Shown here piece by piece: positions 8,726 to 38,469 of a stretch of DNA of 64,000 nt; within the stretch, counting starts at the first letter, position 1; each line of letters starts with the position of its first letter. Location of the stretch: positions 19,294-83,293 of the forward strand of contig CAZGWM010000001.1 in assembly GCA_964529195.1 (NCBI GenBank), read 5' to 3'. The notes beneath the pieces are model-generated. The model ran no database searches. It saw only the letters and a program-made list of their open reading frames with translations, and had not been told where the DNA came from. Origin of the DNA: an uncultured Muribaculaceae bacterium (GTDB lineage Bacteria; Bacillota_I; Bacilli_A; RF39; UBA660). Both the position numbers and the translations under genes were made by a program.

Positions 8726-8756
8726 ATATCATTTTTGATATGCTTGAATTAATTTT
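8726..8756 (-). terminator. Rho-independent terminator after ezrA
   Basis: Perfect 10-bp stem AAGCATATCA-TTTT-TGATATGCTT followed by a U-tract on the minus strand. Confidence 0.7.
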
Positions 8757-10453
8757 TTATGAATTTCAGTATCAACTAAGGAGATTGAGTTAATTGCTTG
8801 TTCAAGTGATTCTTTGTATTCACCATTTCTAAATTTTCTTTCCGCTATGATTAGGCCCTGATTTAAGGTTTTATTTAGTGGTTTAAATTTATTTCCATAT
8901 ATAATTGTATTTTCAGCTAGTTTAGCAGTCTTTATTGTTTCATTTGAAGTTTTATGTAATTTTAAGGCTAAGTCTCTTGCTGTATCTACTCTTGTATTTA
9001 ATAGTCTTATAGATATTGGTTTTTTATTCATTTCAACAAGCATATCATCTACTGCTTCATTTGCTTCTTTTAGGTGAATAAAGTATTCCTCTGGAATAAC
9101 AGGTAGTTTATAGCTGTTAATTCTTTTAGTTGCTTTTTTTAGTATATCTCTTATTTCATCATATTGTTCATGCGCTCTTAGTTCATCTTCTTTTAAACCA
9201 CTTAAGCTTTTTAATGTTAGTTCAAGTTTATCTTCGTTTTTTGATAATCTTAAATTTAAATGTTCTAATTCTTTATTTATTTTAGAGAAAGCAAATGATT
9301 TATTACGATAATTTTCTACTATTTGTTCATAATCATTTTGAATTGTTTTTATATTTATGTTTAATTCATCTATTATTTTTACTTCTTCGTTTGATAAGTC
9401 ATAACTATATTTTATATCTTCTATTTTAGATGATAGTTTAGTTACTATGTTAAGCATCTTTCTGGTTTTAATAGCAACTTTACGCATGTTTTCTTCAAAG
9501 GTTTTTTTACTTAGTTTTTCATTATCAAAATCAAAATAAATTGATTCAAAGTATGTAAGGATTGTTTTTAATTCAAAGATTGAATCAGTTAAATTCAGTA
9601 CTTTTAATCTATCAAATATATCTGCTATTTTCTTTTCGGATTCAGATATATTATAATCGATATTTAAATAATCTAAGTTATAGTTATCTTTTACCATTTT
9701 ATTATGAATACTTCTTACATCATTTATTTTAACTGGGATTAATTTTCTTCCCATTAATATTATTGAAGGCGCTTCATCAACAACTATTTTTAAATTTCCA
9801 ATAGTATCATCAAGTGCTTTAACTATTTTACCTACTTCACTGTAGGCATTTTCTTCCATTGTTTTTTCAAAGGCACTAAATAATTTATCGATATTTTCAA
9901 ATTGAAGTTCGAGAGGTTTTTTTATTTCAGAGTATTCCTCGGAATTTTTATTATACTTCATGTATATATCTCTGTAATCAGATTTTAGTTTTGTTACTAT
10001 TTCTCTATTTTTACTTTCACTTAATGATATTTCTTTTATTTCACTTAAAAGAAAGTCACTCTTTGTTTTTACATAATGTATCTCTAGCTCTAAATCAGCA
10101 ATTGATTTATTTTTTTCTTTAAATTTTCCTTTTTTACAATTTTCTTCAAGTTCAATTAGTTTATCATTTAAATTTGGCATGTCTTTATTTTTTATTATTT
10201 CATATCTACTTTGCCATAATTTATATTCTTTTTCTAATTCTTTATTATTTATTAATGCTCCAACTTTGTTTAATTCATTTTGAATTGCACCAGAAAGTAT
10301 TAAGTTTTTTTCTTTTTCAAGAGTAGATATTATTTCTGCATATTTTTTATTTGTTTTCTTTCTTAGTATAACTAAAACTGTTATTATAAGCGCGATAAAA
10401 ACAAAAATATATACATAACCTAATATTTGATAAATACTATCTGTCATAAGCAT
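8729..10453 (-). CDS. ezrA: septation ring formation regulator EzrA
   Basis: 574 aa with an N-terminal TM segment then long coiled coils; EzrA-type organisation and size. Confidence 0.8.
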   Translation of the reverse strand: MLMTDSIYQILGYVYIFVFIALIITVLVILRKKTNKKYAEIISTLEKEKNLILSGAIQNELNKVGALINNKELEKEYKLWQSRYEIIKNKDMPNLNDKLIELEENCKKGKFKEKNKSIADLELEIHYVKTKSDFLLSEIKEISLSESKNREIVTKLKSDYRDIYMKYNKNSEEYSEIKKPLELQFENIDKLFSAFEKTMEENAYSEVGKIVKALDDTIGNLKIVVDEAPSIILMGRKLIPVKINDVRSIHNKMVKDNYNLDYLNIDYNISESEKKIADIFDRLKVLNLTDSIFELKTILTYFESIYFDFDNEKLSKKTFEENMRKVAIKTRKMLNIVTKLSSKIEDIKYSYDLSNEEVKIIDELNINIKTIQNDYEQIVENYRNKSFAFSKINKELEHLNLRLSKNEDKLELTLKSLSGLKEDELRAHEQYDEIRDILKKATKRINSYKLPVIPEEYFIHLKEANEAVDDMLVEMNKKPISIRLLNTRVDTARDLALKLHKTSNETIKTAKLAENTIIYGNKFKPLNKTLNQGLIIAERKFRNGEYKESLEQAINSISLVDTEIHKKLIQAYQK

Positions 10454-10513
10454 TTCTCCTCTATAATAAATTTTATCATATTTTTTTCATTTTTAATAGA
10501 TTCATCTTTAAGA

Positions 10514-11592
10514 TTATAAAAAAAGATATGGATCTGAAAATGTTCCGGTTCCAATAATTAGTTTGCTTGGTTTTAAGTTAATTACTGGTCTTACCCCGCC
10601 ATTAAAATATGCGACATAATCATTATATAAATAACTACCTGATCCAACGCTCCACACTCTTACTTCTGACCCAGAATAATAATATGGCGTCATTGTCCAG
10701 TATGATTGGATTGAATTTAAATAGTTAGTTGATCTGGGAGAGTTATATTTTAACCATGTTATTTATCCTTCATCTGCAGTTAGTAATCCTATAGGATATT
10801 GAAGTGAATTATTACCAGGAACAGATAGGTTGTTATAGCTTGTTGTTGTAAATCTATCATTTTGTAAAGGACATTTTAAAGTAGGTATTTTTAAATTATA
10901 AATTCGGTAATAACCAGCATAATTGGTAGAAGAAGTTCCATAATCATCATCCATTTTATAAACTTTGTTTTCAGAAGAGGTACTTACTGAGTTAAAGATT
11001 GAAGTAGAAGGTTCTTCAATGTTTACTTCCCCTTAATTATCAGCAAGTATTATGTTATTTAATTTTCCTCTTGGAGCTATTTTACATTCACTTTTAATTT
11101 TTGTCCCTTCTTCAGTTTTTATGTATGCTTCAAATATTTTATTAAAGTCTTCATTTTGAATATTTTGTGTTTCTGGAAAGTAAAATTTTAAATTATAAGT
11201 ATGAATTTTATTTCCGCCCGTTGGTCCGGAGAAACTTCCGTTTCCAAGTACATCTTCACCAGGTACATTCAGTAAAAAACACATATCTTCTTCAGAAGAT
11301 GGAACTACTGTTCCATTTGAGTTTATATTTGTTGATGTTAGTTTATATGCTATAGCATAATCACTAAATGTATTTGTTTTCATTATTAATGTTAAATTAT
11401 AATCCATAGGATCTGCGGTATTATTATCTCCTGTTACAGTGAAATTTTTATTTGCAAAGTGAGTATTGCTTGGGTTTCAGTTCCACTTATTGTAGCTAAA
11501 AAATAAGCATACGAAAAAATTACTGTTGTGAGTAACAGTATTACAATTATAAAGGCCATTTGGATTAAACTCTGCTTTTCAATTTTGATCAC
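10514..11592 (-). pseudogene. disrupted gene for a ~350-aa secreted protein (signal peptide MAFIIVILLLTTVIFSYAYFLA...): one frameshift near 11465-11485, then in-frame TAA codons at 11033-11035 and 10763-10765
   Basis: My own translation. Frame A (GTG 11592 / ATG 11559) encodes a hydrophobic signal peptide and stops after ~40 codons. The -1 frame continues (...NPSNTHFANKNFTVTGDNNTADPMDYNL...ILADN) to TAA, then in the same frame (GEVNIEEPS...LLTADEG) to TAA, then in the same frame (ITWLKYNSPRS...YYYSGSEVRVWSVGSGSYLYNDYVAYFNGGVRPVINLKPSKLIIGTGTFSDPYLFL) to a stop at 10514. The ORF track shows the fragments 11033-11407 and 10763-10954. Confidence 0.6.
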
Positions 11593-11641
11593 TTTACCTT
11601 ATATATTTAGTATACGAGATATATAATCTTTATTAAATGTT

Positions 11642-12439
11642 TTATTTGGTACAATAAGAGCAGTAAGTAGTTGATCTTCCACCTATTTTATCTTTTGTTA
11701 GTTTATTTTTACATACTGGGCATATTTCTTTTCCATATACTTTTAAGTAATTTTGATAATTACCATATACTCCTAAGCTTGATGTGTAACTTCTTATTGT
11801 AGTTCCTTTTTCTTTTATTGCTTGATTTAATATTTTTATTGAAGAGTCTATTATTTTTGTTGTTTCTTCTTTTGTTATGTTATTTCCTTTTTTATGTGGA
11901 TTTATTTTTGCTTCAAATAATACTTCATCTACATATATATTACCAAGTCCGCTCATTATCTCTTGGTTTAGTAATATTGTTTTAATTGGAGTTTTTCTTT
12001 TATTTATTTTTTCGTATAGTGTTTCACTTGATATATCAAATGGTTCTTTTCCAAGATTAACTAAACTTTTACTTTTGGTTATATCATCTAAAAGAGTCAT
12101 TCTTCCAAACTTTCTTGTATCATGATAAGTAAGAGTAGTATTATCTGTAAATATAAAGATGATATGTTCGTGTTTAACAGGAGCATCTTTTATATTTTTT
12201 AAATAGTATTTCCCTTCCATTCGAAGGTGACTTATTAGTGTATATTTATCTATTTTAAATAATATAAATTTTCCTTTTGTTTCAATATCTTTTATTTTTT
12301 TTCCTTTTAATAAATTTAAATCTAAACTATCTTCCGTTATCATTTTAGGATATATTATTTTTATTTCTTTTATTTCTTTATTTAATATATTATTTTTTAG
12401 TGTTTTTACAACTGTTCTTACTTCGGGTAGTTCTGGCAT
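11642..12439 (-). CDS. mutM: formamidopyrimidine-DNA glycosylase (Fpg/MutM)
   Basis: MPELPEVRTV... N-terminal catalytic Pro/Glu; C-terminal zinc finger CPVCKN...CSYC. Confidence 0.9.
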   Translation of the reverse strand: MPELPEVRTVVKTLKNNILNKEIKEIKIIYPKMITEDSLDLNLLKGKKIKDIETKGKFILFKIDKYTLISHLRMEGKYYLKNIKDAPVKHEHIIFIFTDNTTLTYHDTRKFGRMTLLDDITKSKSLVNLGKEPFDISSETLYEKINKRKTPIKTILLNQEIMSGLGNIYVDEVLFEAKINPHKKGNNITKEETTKIIDSSIKILNQAIKEKGTTIRSYTSSLGVYGNYQNYLKVYGKEICPVCKNKLTKDKIGGRSTTYCSYCTK

Positions 12440-14986
12440 TTAAACCTCATACCAATTTAATCCATAGCTTACATCTGCTTTTATCGGTACTTTTAATTTC
12501 GCTACGTTTTGCATTGTTTCTTTTGTTATTTTTTCTATTATTTCTTTTTCTTCTTTTATTACATCAAATATTATTTCATCGTGAACTTGAAGAATCATTT
12601 TACTTTTTAAGTTATTGTTTGTTATTTCTTTATCTAAATTTACCATTGCCATTTTCATTATATCAGCAGCAGTTCCTTGAATAGGTGTATTAAGAGCAAT
12701 TCTCTCTCCAGCTTGTCTTATGTTATAGTTTTTATTTTTCAGTTCTGGAATGTCTCTTTTTCGGTTAAATAAAGTTCTTACATTTCCATATTCATATGCT
12801 TCTTTAACTATTTCATCCATATAAGTTTTAACTCCTGGATAAAGCTCTAAATATTTATCAATTAATTTTTTAGCCTCTAGTGGATTTATGCTTAGGTTTT
12901 CACTTAATCCAAAACCGCTAATTCCATATACTATTCCAAATATTACTGCTTTAGCAGCAGATCTCATATCTTTTGTTACCTCTTCTTTTAAAACCCCATA
13001 CACATCACTTGCAACTTTAGTATGAATATCCTCATCATGTATAAAAGCATCAATAAGAGATTTTGATCCTGATATATGCGCTAGGACTCTTAGTTCTATT
13101 TGGGAATAATCTGCACTTAAAAATAAATCATTTACAGGAATGAAAGCTTTTCTTACTCTTCTTCCAATTTCATCTCTTGTTGGTATGTTTTGAAGATTAG
13201 GTTCAACACTTGATAACCTTCCGGTTCTTGTTAGTGTTTGTTTATATATTGTATGAATTAAATCATTTTTTATATAAGTACTCATTCCTTCTAAGTATGT
13301 TCCATTTAATTTAGTTAAATTTCTATATTCAAGTATTTTTTCTATTATTGGATGTTTATCTTTTAATTTTTCTAAAGTAGATGCATCAGTACTATAACTT
13401 TTAGTTGCTGTTTTTTTGTATGATGGAAGTCCCATTTTAGAAAATAAGATTTCGCCTAGTTGTTTTGGGCTACTTATATTAAATTCTTCTCCTGCATAGT
13501 TATATATTGTATTTGATATGGTTTCTATTTTTATTTTTATTTCAGTACTCATGTTTTCAAGAAGAGTTTTATTTACCTTTACGCCGTTTAATTCCATTTT
13601 GGCTAAAACATTTATAAGAGGCATCTCTACGTTATTAAATAAATCATACATATTTTCCATCTTTAATTCTTTTATGAGTTTATCTCTTGTTTCGTATATG
13701 TATTTTGCTTTTATTGTAACTGCTTCTTTTAATTTCGCTTCATCTTTGATTACATCTTCATAAAAAGGGCATGAGTATCCTTCATTGTTTATTAAATAAG
13801 CGATGTCTTCTTTTGTTTGATAATTTAAAAGGTATGTAGCAATCATATGATCAAAGATTGTATTTGTATTTAAGTCATTAAGTAAGACTATATTTTTCTT
13901 TAAATCATATGTGTATTTTTTTTCTTCTTTATAATAATCAAGAACATCTTTTAATAATTCTTTTTTTACATAATAAGAATCTACACCATCATAAATAGCT
14001 GCTCCAATTATATTTCCTTCATGATAATTTGGTTTATCACTCTCTATGTAATAAGATATTATTTTTGATTTTTTTAATTCTTTTATATCTTTTAATTCTT
14101 TATAGTTGTTTTCAATTACGACTTTTTTTACTTCGATGTTTTTTAGTAGTGAGTAAAACTCTAAGTCTTTATATATTTCTTCAAGCATTTCATTTGGTCC
14201 ATTATAAGTTAGTTCTTCTAAGTTTATATTAAGCGGTATATCTCTATATATAGTGCACATATCTTTACTAAAGAAAGCATCAGTTTTTCCATCTATTAGT
14301 TTTTGTTTTAGTGCTCCTTTTATATTTTCTATATTTTCATATACATTTTCAATTGTTTTATATTCTCTTAAAAGTTTTAAGGCAGTTATTTCTCCAACTC
14401 CTTTTACTCCAGGTATATTATCAGATGAGTCTCCAGATAATGCTTTTAGATCAATTATATTAATTGGATCAATTCCATATTCTTCTTTAAATGTTTCTTC
14501 ATTCATTCTTATATGATCTTTTTGTTTTAATAGTTTAACATCAGTTTCTTTTGATATTAGCTGGAGCATATCTTTATCAGATGAGATGATTGTTGCATCA
14601 AAGTTAGGATCTTTTTCGGTTTGTTTAGTAATTGTTCCGATGATATCATCCGCTTCATAATTTTCTTTTTCTAAGTATTTAATTCCCATTCCATCTAAAA
14701 GCTCTCTAGCGCGTTTCATTTGTTTTTTTAAATCATCTGGAGTTTCATTTCTTCCAGCTTTATAGTCTTTATATTTTTCATGTCTAAAGTTTTTACCAAC
14801 ATCAAACGCTACTAACATATATTTTGGATTTTCTTCTTTGATTATTTTATTTAACATTGTAGTAAAGCCATATAATGCATTTGTCGCATCACCCTTACTG
14901 TTTTTCATAAGTGCTCCAGAGTAAAGAGTTGCAAAATAACTTCTAAACATTAAATTATTACCATCTATTAGTATGATTTTTTTCAT
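12440..14986 (-). CDS. polA: DNA polymerase I
   Basis: 5'-3' exonuclease N-domain plus family-A polymerase motifs (DYSQIELR, QVHDE); 848 aa; directly abuts mutM. Confidence 0.9.
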   Translation of the reverse strand: MKKIILIDGNNLMFRSYFATLYSGALMKNSKGDATNALYGFTTMLNKIIKEENPKYMLVAFDVGKNFRHEKYKDYKAGRNETPDDLKKQMKRARELLDGMGIKYLEKENYEADDIIGTITKQTEKDPNFDATIISSDKDMLQLISKETDVKLLKQKDHIRMNEETFKEEYGIDPINIIDLKALSGDSSDNIPGVKGVGEITALKLLREYKTIENVYENIENIKGALKQKLIDGKTDAFFSKDMCTIYRDIPLNINLEELTYNGPNEMLEEIYKDLEFYSLLKNIEVKKVVIENNYKELKDIKELKKSKIISYYIESDKPNYHEGNIIGAAIYDGVDSYYVKKELLKDVLDYYKEEKKYTYDLKKNIVLLNDLNTNTIFDHMIATYLLNYQTKEDIAYLINNEGYSCPFYEDVIKDEAKLKEAVTIKAKYIYETRDKLIKELKMENMYDLFNNVEMPLINVLAKMELNGVKVNKTLLENMSTEIKIKIETISNTIYNYAGEEFNISSPKQLGEILFSKMGLPSYKKTATKSYSTDASTLEKLKDKHPIIEKILEYRNLTKLNGTYLEGMSTYIKNDLIHTIYKQTLTRTGRLSSVEPNLQNIPTRDEIGRRVRKAFIPVNDLFLSADYSQIELRVLAHISGSKSLIDAFIHDEDIHTKVASDVYGVLKEEVTKDMRSAAKAVIFGIVYGISGFGLSENLSINPLEAKKLIDKYLELYPGVKTYMDEIVKEAYEYGNVRTLFNRKRDIPELKNKNYNIRQAGERIALNTPIQGTAADIMKMAMVNLDKEITNNNLKSKMILQVHDEIIFDVIKEEKEIIEKITKETMQNVAKLKVPIKADVSYGLNWYEV

Positions 14987-16221
14987 TTCTTTTCCTTTCT
15001 GGTTACACCAGCTTTTATTCCAGCGATAGATCTTTTTCGATCAATTCCTGTTTTTGATTTTAATAAATTTATATATTTAAATTTAGTTAAATCAGATATG
15101 TTTAAAGCATCAATATTCTCTGGATCATTAAAGTAAAATATATTATCACCCGTTAAAAGGTTTCTTCCAACTCCTAATAAAGTATATTCTTCTTTATTAT
15201 CTGTTGAGTTTAAAAGATATGCTGCTTCTAAGTCTTTTTCTGGCGCGATTATAAAATCATTTAGTTTACTAAATCTTTCATAATTATATGCATTTGGAAT
15301 TACTTTAAATACCTCAAGTGATTCCTCATTTATATAGTTAGCTACATTTGATGTTATAAAATCTACTTTATCTGAAAAAATTAGACTCCAAAATTCCGGA
15401 TCATTAAAGTTATAGTTTTCATTTCCAATTAAATACATATCCGGTGTATCATCATATTTATATGCAATTATGTATTTACCTTCTATTTTATATATATTAG
15501 TATTTTTATCATATAAAATATAATCACTATTTGAGTGAGGATATTTTTCTTTTAAATAAGATCTTAATATTGCTTGTGTATATCTACCTTCATAAGTATT
15601 TGTTTCAACATATGTATGATTATTTTTTGATGTTTTTACTTCTCTTTCTTTTATAAAATCTTTGTATTTTTCAGGTACACTGTGAAAAGTATATTTTGTG
15701 AAAAATCTTTTTAATGTTGCTCCAAGATCTGTTTCTCTTCCTTCTTTTAAAAGATTTTTATCTACTCCACCTAAATGGGCCATATTAGTTATTTCATTTA
15801 CTATTTGAAGTCCTTCTAAGTAATGTCTTTGATCGTAACTATCATATAAATCTTCAAGTAAGGGTGATAATTTGTATAAATATGTTGTTATTCTTAAAGT
15901 TGGATTTTTTATTTTATCTATTTCTCGTCTAAAAACTGGATTTGATATAAAGTCTCTTATTAATTCATAATCATATACATAATTAGAAAGAAATATATGT
16001 CTTACTGAGTTATATATTAGTAAATATATTTGTTTATCAGTTAATTTTGAATTAGAAAGCTCTCTTTCAAGAGTTTTAATCTCTATAATAGAGTCATGAA
16101 GTTTAGATAATCTTCCTGGTTCTTCTCTATAATCATATACTTCTTCTATTAATTTTGTAAATATACCAATATATCTTTGACTTAAATTTGATGCCATTAC
16201 TAGGCTTTGTTCATAGTTCAT
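14983..16221 (-). CDS. hypothetical protein (412 aa), translationally coupled to polA
   Basis: Long uninterrupted ORF with a 4-nt overlap onto the polA start; no family recognised by eye. Confidence 0.5.
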   Translation of the reverse strand: MNYEQSLVMASNLSQRYIGIFTKLIEEVYDYREEPGRLSKLHDSIIEIKTLERELSNSKLTDKQIYLLIYNSVRHIFLSNYVYDYELIRDFISNPVFRREIDKIKNPTLRITTYLYKLSPLLEDLYDSYDQRHYLEGLQIVNEITNMAHLGGVDKNLLKEGRETDLGATLKRFFTKYTFHSVPEKYKDFIKEREVKTSKNNHTYVETNTYEGRYTQAILRSYLKEKYPHSNSDYILYDKNTNIYKIEGKYIIAYKYDDTPDMYLIGNENYNFNDPEFWSLIFSDKVDFITSNVANYINEESLEVFKVIPNAYNYERFSKLNDFIIAPEKDLEAAYLLNSTDNKEEYTLLGVGRNLLTGDNIFYFNDPENIDALNISDLTKFKYINLLKSKTGIDRKRSIAGIKAGVTRKEKK

Positions 16222-35442: not shown

Positions 35443-38400
35443 GTATGTCTACATTTAAGTTAAGTTCGTTTACTTCGATGTTTGTATTTAAATTTTCTTT
35501 TTTATCTATATTAAGAGCAAGTGTTTCTTCTTTTATATAGTCTTTAAATAGATCAAACATTTTTTCACATGTTGAATTTGTTTCATAATATATATTAATT
35601 CTATCTGTTATTTCAAAGTTTAATTCTTTTCTTAAATTTTGAACTTTACTTACAAATTCTCTAGCCAAACCTTCTAAGTGTAATTCTTCAGTGATTTCAG
35701 TATTTAATATTACGAAGTCATTATTATATGTACCTACATTTAATCCTTCTTTTGATGATATTTTTACTTCAACCATATTTTTATTTACTAATATTTCTTC
35801 ATTATCTAAATTAATTTTTATTTCTTTATTATTTTGAAGTTTTGTTATATCTTCACTTGTTAATTTTTCTAATTCTTTAGCAAATAAATTTATTTTACTT
35901 CCAAATACTTTACCTACTTCTCTAAAGTTTGGTTTTACTGATAAATTCATATATGTATTTAAATCATCTACATATATTATTTCTTTTACGTTTAGTTCTT
36001 CTTTTATTAATTCAGTTAGTTCATCTATTATTTTTTCATTTTTGCGATCTAAAAGTATTTCTTTGAGTGGTTGGCGAACTTTTATTTTAGATTCTTCTCT
36101 AACCATTCTTCCAATACTTATTAAGTTTCTTACAAGATCCATTTTTTCTTCTAATTTTTCATCTATTAATGATTCATCATATACTGGAAAGTCAGCTAAA
36201 TGAACAGATTCACTACCAGTTAATTTTTGGTATATTTCCTCTGATATAAATGGTGTTATAGGCGCAATCATTTTACATAAGTTAGTTAGTACTTCGTGAG
36301 TTGTTAAGTAAACTGATTTTTTAGAATTATCAAGTTCACTTCCCCAAAAACGATATCTATTTCTTCTTATATACCAGTAAGATCATATTCTTCATAACTT
36401 TTAGTTACATATTTAAGTAATGCGTGATATTTAGATAATATCCATTTATCAATATCTTCTCTATCTTCATATGGAACATCAAATTCATTTACATTTACTC
36501 CATCTGTGTTTGCATACATTTGGAAAAATGAATATGTATTTTTAAGTGGATTAAAGAATTTTGAGTATACTTCTTTTAATCCTTCATAATCAAATCTTAG
36601 TGGCATCCATACAGGTGAGACATATGGCATATAAAATCTTACTACATCTGCTCCATATTCTTCCATTAATTCAAATGGTTCGATTATGTTTCCTCTACTT
36701 TTACTCATTTTTTTACCTTCAGAGTCTACTAGTAAATCATTTACTAATACATTTTTATATGGAGCTCTTCCAGTTACAAATGTTGATATTAATAAAAGTG
36801 TATAAAACCATCCTCTTGTTTGATCTATTCCTTCACATATAAAATCAGCAGGAAATTGTTTATCAAATATTTCTTCATTATTAAATGGAAAGTGATATTG
36901 AGCAAAAGGCATTGATCCCGAGTCAAACCAGCAATCTATTACTTCTGGAACTCTTTTCATATGTTTATTACATTTAGAGCACTTTAATAAAACATCATCT
37001 ACATATGGTCTGTGAAGATCAATTGAGTTATCAATTTTATTAACTGATTTTTCAATTAATTCTTCTTTTGAACCAATCATTTCTTCATGACCGCATTCAC
37101 ATTTCCATAATGGTAGTGGCGTTCCCCAGTATCTTTCTCTTGATATAGCCCAGTCATTCATATTTTCAAGCCAGTTTCCAAATCTTTTTTCTCCAACATG
37201 TTTTGGATACCAATTTACTTTTTTATTTTCTTTTATTACTTTATCTTTTATTTTTGTTACTTCAAGATAATAACTTGGTTTTGAATAATATATTAATTGA
37301 CTTTGACATCTCCAGCAGTGTGGATAATTATGTGTTATTCTTTGTTTTTTAAATAATTTATCATTTTCTCTTAAGTATTTTATTATTTCAAGATCTGCAT
37401 CAAATACAAGCATGTCTTTCCATGGGCCTTCTGTGTAGGTTCCATCTTCTCCAACTGGATTTAAAACTGGAAGATTATATTTTCTTCCTACTTCATAGTC
37501 ATCTTGACCAAAAGCAGGAGCCATATGAACTATTCCTGTTCCATCTTCCATACTTACAAAATCAGCAAGCGTAATAAAGAATGCTTCTTTATCAGGTTTT
37601 ATAAATGGAAGTAGTTGGTTATATTTTTTATTTTCTAAATCTTTTCCTAAATAAGTATCTAAAACCTCAAAATCATCTCCTAAAAGAGTTTTAGATAGCT
37701 TTTTAGCTACAATAAAGTTATTTCCTTGTGATGATACTTTGACATATTCTTCTCTTGGATTAACTGCAAGGGCAACGTTTGCCATTAGAGTCCAAGGAGT
37801 AGTTGTCCAAACTAAAAAGTTTGCATCTAGTTCTTCTGAATAAAAGGGAACAATTACTGTATCTACTGGTACTTCTTTATAACCTTGAGCTACTTCATGA
37901 GTAGCAAGTCCAGTTCCACATCTTGGGCAGTAAGGTAATATTTTATGACCTTGATAAAATAATCCTTCTTCAAAAAATTTCTTTAAGATCCACCACTCTG
38001 TTTCGATATAATTATCATGATATGTTACATATGGATTATCCAGATCAATAAACTGTCCCATTTTGGTAGTTAGTTTAGAAAATAGCTCTTCATTTTTCCA
38101 TACACTTTCTCTACATTTTTGGTTAAACTCTGCTATTCCATATTTTTCTATATCTGATTTTGAGGTAAATCCCAATTCTTTTTCAACTTCAAGTTCAACA
38201 GGAAGACCGTGCGTGTCCCATCCTATTTTACGATATACTTTATATCCTTGCATTGTTTTATATTTACAAAATGAATCTTTTAAAAATTTTGCAAGCATAT
38301 GATGAAGTCCAGGATAACCATTTGCAGTAGCTGGGCCATCATAAAATACCCAGTATTTATCTCTGTTTTTAATTGATTTTTCGAAAATATTATTTTCTTC

Positions 38401-38469
38401 CCAGTATTTTGAGTAAGATGCTTCGACATCTTTTACTGCTTTTTTGTTTAATTCTTCATATTTTTTCAT
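35429..38469 (-). CDS. ileS: isoleucine--tRNA ligase, reading frame interrupted near 36300-36370 (track ORFs 36367-38469 and 35429-36271 lie in different frames)
   Basis: N-part has HIGH (PATANGYPGLHHM), editing-domain and KMSKS (KMSKSRGN) motifs and ends ...SYEEYDLTGI*. The C-part frame is open upstream as ...YIRRNRYRFWGSELDNSKKSVYLTTHEVLTNLCKMIAPITPFISEEIYQ (IleS anticodon-binding/C-terminal region). By alignment to IleS from memory, ~17-18 residues are missing at the junction. Confidence 0.8.

Follow-up and report, generated by a model that had tools for sequence, protein, structure and literature searches.

The segment at 11592-10514 (minus strand) of the DNA analysed here, a window of 64 kb, is the largest gap in a sequence whose remainder is 92.6% coding and holds no second broken gene, and the question that it raises is whether it is spacer DNA, a gene that is still read by unusual means, or the remains of a gene. 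When Pfam was run on six neighbouring ORFs, the minus-strand gene order was found to be polA-mutM-relic-ezrA-cysteine desulfurase-like-thiI. A 412-aa ORF (14983-16221, minus strand) that has no Pfam match at E<=1e-3 lies directly upstream of polA, with a 4-nt overlap. A preliminary description of the locus had taken the segment to be not random non-coding DNA, and had read it as four collinear minus-strand pieces of one protein, with a first frame that ends after about 40 codons and a next frame that is broken by two in-frame TAA codons. On all these points the description was borne out. The first frame has 41 codons from the internal ATG 11559 to the TAA at 11436-11434. The second frame opens at 11473, has 320 codons and closes with the TAA at 10516-10514, and it is interrupted only by the TAA codons at 11035-11033 and 10765-10763, exactly the positions first reported, whereas ~27.6 stops would be expected in 320 codons (P(<=2) ~4e-10) under a simple composition model (~0.086 stops per codon; window G+C of 25.8%). 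Each of the four pieces matched the profile of a single protein family separately and in order, with E-values from 2e-6 to 8e-44 (Table 1).

The parent family was reached with a repaired conceptual translation of the segment, which matched 474 proteins at E<=1e-3. The best homologues are intact hypothetical proteins of 505-545 aa, 45-51% identical to the translation, from MAGs labelled Bacilli, Mollicutes and Tissierellia, and they include GX666_00180 from a Tissierellia bacterium (P0001), PHF30_01085 from a Bacilli bacterium (P0005) and GX265_02620 from a Mollicutes bacterium (P0028). The homology search proposed in the preliminary description therefore did yield intact homologues, but none closer than ~50% identity. 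A profile (A2) was made from 40 intact family members and run on every six-frame ORF of the window, and the relic was aligned with 13 intact homologues (alignment A1). The relic is collinear with this family of ~505-545-aa Bacilli/Mollicutes proteins over the four pieces, at 45-62% identity, and in a tblastn search with the homologue P0003, residues 66-244 fell on 11473-10931 (62% identity) and residues 397-535 on 10942-10523. What is common to both is the anchor motif (S/T)YAYF..G(S/T)E, the beta-sandwich domain and the C-terminal end. In the N-terminal part, profile positions 4-46 and 68-205 were matched and the invariant A1 columns A29, F31, E39 and P42 are kept; the ORF that starts at GTG 11592, four bases downstream of AAGG, translates as MIKIEKQSLIQMAFIIVILLLTTVIFSYAYFLATISGTETQAILTLQIKISL and ends at the TAA at 11436-11434, and its internal ATG gives MAFIIVILLL.... 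Of the complete ~300-aa C-terminal module of the family, on the other hand, the relic retains only positions 209-241 and 383-516, and the core (242-382) is deleted. Hence the relic differs from the family, all listed members of which are intact, in the loss of profile positions 47-67 and 242-382, in a change of frame and in the two TAA codons.

Table 1. Features of the mutM-ezrA interval, with the matches of family profile A2 and the ORFs found at the same place in the nearest genomes (coordinates are those of the window unless a genome is named).
Feature	Coordinates	Strand	Description
Piece 1	11476..11592	-	original start GTG 11592, N-terminal membrane helix and YAYF..GTE motif; profile 4-46, E 2e-6; aligns to homologue N-termini (A1)
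Piece 1, out-of-frame tail	11434..11475	-	same bases in the other frame are the beginning of piece 2; three-frame translation
Deletion junction 1	11473..11476	-	28-column gap in A1; profile 47-67 missing
Piece 2, beta-sandwich domain (PSNTHFANKNFTVTG ... ILADN)	11036..11473	-	profile 68-205, E 8e-44; 62% identity to P0003 residues 66-244
Nonsense codon 1, TAA	11033..11035	-	near-invariant Gly of the ILAxxGG motif (A1)
Piece 3a (...GEVNIEEPS...YKMDDDYGTS)	10931..11032	-	linker and first strand of C-terminal module; profile 209-241
Deletion junction 2 (TCT TCT), in frame	10928..10933	-	DDDYGTS/STNYAGYY at ~10931; profile 242-382 absent
Piece 3b (STNYAGYYRIYNLKIPTLKCPLQNDRFTT...YPIGLLTADEG)	10766..10930	-	profile 383-435, domain E 1.8e-18
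Nonsense codon 2, TAA	10763..10765	-	column that varies among the homologues (S/A/T/I); TCA is one step away
Piece 4, end of C-terminal module (YWTMTP...GVRPVINLKP...GTGTFSDPYLFL)	10514..10762	-	with original stop TAA 10516-10514; profile 441-516, E 2e-20
Profile A2 match	11598-11437	-	positions 4-46, E 2e-6
Profile A2 match	11476-11036	-	positions 68-205, E 8e-44
Profile A2 match	11032-10766	-	positions 209-241 and 383-435, E 7e-24
Profile A2 match	10762-10517	-	positions 441-516, E 2e-20
mutM/fpg, intact	11642-12439	-	upstream neighbour; Pfam Fapy_DNA_glyco, H2TH, zf-FPG
ezrA, intact	8729-10453	-	downstream neighbour; Pfam EzrA, E 1e-91
Intact 293-294-aa ORF in slot, opposite strand	L003 6829-7710	-	no significant Pfam match
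Intact 293-294-aa ORF in slot, opposite strand	L004 6966-7850	-	no significant Pfam match
Intact 293-294-aa ORF in slot, opposite strand	L005 7538-8422	-	no significant Pfam match

The damage was then read against the alignment. Three lesions, a frameshift and two TAA codons, had been counted in the preliminary description, and this was an undercount: as judged from the sequence, the lesions number at least four, i.e., two deletions and two TAA codons, since the change of frame is a junction of ~85 nt rather than a 1-nt slip and the in-frame deletion had been missed. At the first junction, only 2 nt lie between the invariant E codon (11478-11476) of G(S/T)E and the invariant P codon (11473-11471) of PSN, where the homologues have 29-30 codons. 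The loss amounts to ~85 nt (3n+1; 21-29 codons), and therefore the frame changes. No homopolymer, simple-sequence repeat or slippery tract was observed in the codon view of this junction, GAAACCCAAGC, which is also given as GGAACTGAAACCCAAGCAAT. At the second junction, ~140-155 codons are lost in frame, a stretch that corresponds to P0003 residues 245-396 and to A1 columns 258-422, which are empty in the relic. Within the C-terminal module, conservation peaks in this core stretch, and with it the relic has lost the motifs that the family conserves best (YYFRGAK, QWKIVRINGDGS, DNKYVGYMYGG and LFCNDR). The first TAA would require at least two substitutions from GGN, e.g., GGA>TGA>TAA. As estimated from paralogue-level relatives (best ~50% identity), which is also the basis for the ancestral sequence and for the age of the copy, the two deletions together account for ~160-180 of ~530 codons, so that about one third of the ancestral gene is lost.

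Both marks of a pseudogene, collinear homology to intact genes and lesions that are incompatible with the ancestral product, are thus found at this locus, and the segment is very probably a non-functional pseudogene of a ~530-codon gene for a membrane-anchored surface protein, disabled by the four lesions; no product of the original kind would then be made. This supports the earlier proposal that an inactivated gene, for a protein exported or exposed at the surface, lies between ezrA and mutM; both flanking genes were confirmed with Pfam. The ancestral gene would have encoded a membrane helix that carries the YAYF..GSE motif, followed by a beta-sandwich domain and then a DUF6273-like module of ~300 aa, and would have belonged to a family of uncultured, AT-rich, Mollicutes-like Bacilli. 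A deletion of ~85 nt, out of frame and just after the membrane anchor, a deletion of ~140-155 codons, in frame and stripping the module of its conserved core, and the rise of TAA codons at 11035-11033 and at 10765-10763 may have followed from the gene having become dispensable, with erosion by deletion-biased and AT-biased mutation. Both biases are typical of small AT-rich genomes.

A lesion that is seen in one assembled sequence might also have been made by the assembly. In this case an intact gene would be present in the genome, and the collapse or chimera of paralogous copies would have produced both apparent deletions. Repeats are known to break short-read assemblies, and the family is multi-copy (14,203 cluster representatives, often with repeated modules), with copies near polA and mutM in relatives. 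However, a collapse cannot make two TAA substitutions. In the 64-kb window, neither a second family copy (profile A2 and tblastn) nor a repeated segment was detected, and the joins to mutM and ezrA are clean, as they are in relatives. Furthermore, the remainder of the window is contiguous and has no other broken gene, and its coding content of 92.6% argues against a generally error-ridden assembly, so that we regard an artefact as quite improbable. Same-species sequence was searched for by an exact-protein look-up of the window MutM and with an exact DNA pattern around the first TAA (this codon wild-carded) in metagenome_contigs, and none was found; when the repaired translation was run as a peptide pattern on metagenome_contigs, nothing was returned either.

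If the segment is a pseudogene, its age can be approached from what it has kept. Over the retained segments, the relic agrees with the 13 intact homologues at 51 of the 52 columns in which these do not vary (leave-one-out retention of 87-100% for the intact members themselves). A neighbour-joining tree of 317 shared columns gives it a terminal branch of 0.238 vs 0.243 for the sister P0003, and its GC1/2/3 values (35/38/16%) follow the same pattern as those of ezrA, mutM and polA. These results, together with the presence of 2 stops against ~28 expected, indicated that the copy evolved as a protein nearly throughout, and we infer that inactivation is young compared with the divergence of the family. 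Recent inactivation had been claimed before, and it is probably correct, with damage heavier than was then thought. The dating is indirect, because there is no orthologue above ~50% identity. Taken as a whole, the relic is an ordinary, young and already heavily truncated pseudogene.

The near-perfect retention of invariant residues beside four lesions is nevertheless slightly odd, and the sequence could have been kept for another reason. It might be a silent donor cassette, i.e., a truncated, promoter-poor copy that is kept for gene conversion into expressed paralogues, similar to the antigenic-variation reservoirs of Mycoplasma, Borrelia and Neisseria. Such a role, if true, would explain why 51 of the 52 invariant residues are kept and why the branch is not accelerated despite the lesions; in addition, the family is large and surface-exposed, with a variable C-terminus, and the host lineage is Mollicutes-like. 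We consider it slightly less likely even than an assembly artefact. The relic is a single copy and not part of an array, no recipient paralogue is present in the window, and no recombination repeats were found, either flanking or internal. Moreover, the start codon and the signal anchor, which are usually missing from donor cassettes, are both kept, and a young pseudogene fits the observations equally well.

Continued function, either by programmed frameshifting plus read-through of the TAA codons or with a 124-aa ORF (11407-11033) as a new gene, is the least credible reading of all, since that ORF, which starts with ATG and spans the greater part of the beta-sandwich domain, has neither the signal anchor nor the opening strands of this domain, and its start coincides with an internal invariant Met of the family, and since recoding would face a junction (GAAACCCAAGC) that has no homopolymer or slippery tract, a TAA that is a standard stop and a conserved module core that is physically absent. 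With the core missing and two deletions present, rescue by single-base correction, read-through or frameshifting is ruled out. Three further candidates were rejected. Phase variation or programmed frameshifting was discarded, given the lack of a slippery tract and the ~21-29 codons that are missing at the first junction. Reassignment of TAA was discarded as well: TAA ends 36 of the 52 ORFs longer than 150 aa in the window (TGA 9, TAG 7), so that it is the main genuine terminator and no reassignment explains the in-frame TAA codons. As for the insertion of a mobile element, flanking direct and inverted repeats were no more than expected by chance. The best sigma-70-like match of the region, TTTTCA-16-TATAAT (10/12; 10540-10513, minus strand), falls within the final codons of the relic. 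It precedes the ezrA start by ~60 nt and might be the ezrA promoter; the counts in a promoter and terminator scan of the region were at the level of shuffled sequence.

The place that the relic occupies was also followed in relatives. Species-representative genomes were scanned with the window MutM, and the nearest were three MAGs labelled "Bacilli bacterium" (L003-L005), with identities to the window of 58-62% for MutM, 73-74% for PolA and 80% for EzrA. The order polA-mutM-slot-ezrA is kept in all three, and iscS comes next in L003 and L005, whereas the contig of L004 ends within ezrA. A family orthologue in the slot of these nearest genomes was rejected, because they carry an unrelated gene there (Table 1), to which an extra 401-aa ORF is added in L003; the 293-294-aa gene is absent from the window. 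These different slot genes indicated that the slot is variable and that the family gene in it is dispensable. Elsewhere the family is found in other surroundings. The P0005 locus (L001) is non-syntenic and lies between pdp and lon. Family members were observed directly upstream of mutM in L006 (2-1273) and L009 (1-1572), between polA and mutM in L011 (8318-9925), and downstream of mutM on the same strand in L012 (11576-13066, an intact protein of 496 aa), and others lie beside or near polA/mutM in L007 (5471-7057), L008 (4004-5728) and L017 (5306-7312). This adjacency to polA/mutM, recurrent and shifting in position, may be due to how common the family is, and not to orthology. For annotation, the 1.1 kb is to be entered as one pseudogene in place of three or four short ORFs for hypothetical proteins, and the mutM-ezrA spacer is marked as a variable slot in the lineage.

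What the gene encoded before its inactivation was examined on intact homologues. In the AlphaFold2 model of P0003 (pLDDT 86), a helix (residues 2-26) is joined by a short linker of low confidence to an all-beta domain (39-187), and a mixed alpha/beta module (~230-537) follows. The N-terminal half bears a likeness to TasA/camelysin-type (SipW-dependent) proteins, in which a membrane helix leads, through an aromatic A-x-F motif, into a beta-sandwich domain, and one distant match, P0119, carries PF12389 (Peptidase_M73). Models of NCBIfam and Pfam for SipW-type signals or for TasA/camelysin gave no matches at E<=0.1 in five intact homologues or at E<=1 in the relic, so that this is a likeness only and not membership.

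The C-terminal module was modelled alone (P0040) with a pLDDT of 93.7, and a Foldseek search with this model returned a single significant PDB match, 9qa6 (E 8e-5, probability 0.99), with a low TMq of 0.33, at the level of the whole entry. This entry is the IgA peptidase ThomasA of Thomasclavelia ramosa, the N-terminal domain of which (residues 31-322) is annotated as DUF6273 (PMC12402451). DUF6273 has been described as C-type-lectin-like and, in gut phages, as a variable target of diversity-generating retroelements (DGRs) with a role in receptor binding (PMC10743442; bioRxiv 10.1101/2024.10.15.618418). With the Pfam model of DUF6273 (PF19789), the C-terminal end of the relic scored 19.4-20.1 bits and the intact P0028 20.9 bits, both below the gathering threshold (23.5); among 40 family members, only 8 matched at E<=0.01 (best 3.4e-6). 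The C-terminal WxxSP...GVRPV(I/L)NL, shared by the relic family and DUF6273, aligns with the final ~50 positions of PF19789, whereas the family module has ~300 aa against the 172 positions of the model and its TM-score to 9qa6 is 0.33. Hence the C-terminal module appears to be related to DUF6273, and this DUF6273-like module of ~300 aa is probably ligand-binding; the ancestral product would have been a surface protein, either secreted or anchored in the membrane, with a putative ligand-binding module. Unlike the known DUF6273 systems, the relic locus shows neither a peptidase domain nor the setting of a DGR or a phage; the Pfam scan of its surroundings covered six neighbouring ORFs. The candidate of a DGR target gene, to which the DUF6273 literature had pointed, was rejected, because no DGR template repeat was found in the window: blastn of 10500-11600 against the whole window gave matches at chance level. 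That DUF6273 domains occur both in an IgA protease of a gut bacterium and in gut-phage receptor-binding proteins that are hypervariable may make the link of the module worth more than the relic.

The family to which the relic belongs is large, with 14,203 cluster representatives at E<=1e-3 and 4,755 at 1e-30, and searches of NCBIfam, PHROGs and, with profiles, PDB sequences returned nothing significant for it. In many members the ~300-aa C-terminal module is present as repeats or has been fused into proteins that are thousands of residues long, which suggests that it is a widely reused extracellular module without a curated domain model. A parent family of ~14,000 clusters at 50% identity that has no curated Pfam or NCBIfam model is a side result that is perhaps worth more than the pseudogene, and its size together with the DUF6273 link would be no surprise to a specialist. 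Among the matches are giant proteins of 2,000-4,900 aa (P0121-P0125), with up to 22 matched stretches of the ~300-aa module. As for RNA features of the window, a search for tRNA genes found none, and the only Rfam match was a T-box leader (RF00230; 38496-38695, minus strand), which scored 106.6 bits, above the gathering score, and lies directly upstream of a 700-aa ORF (36367-38469).
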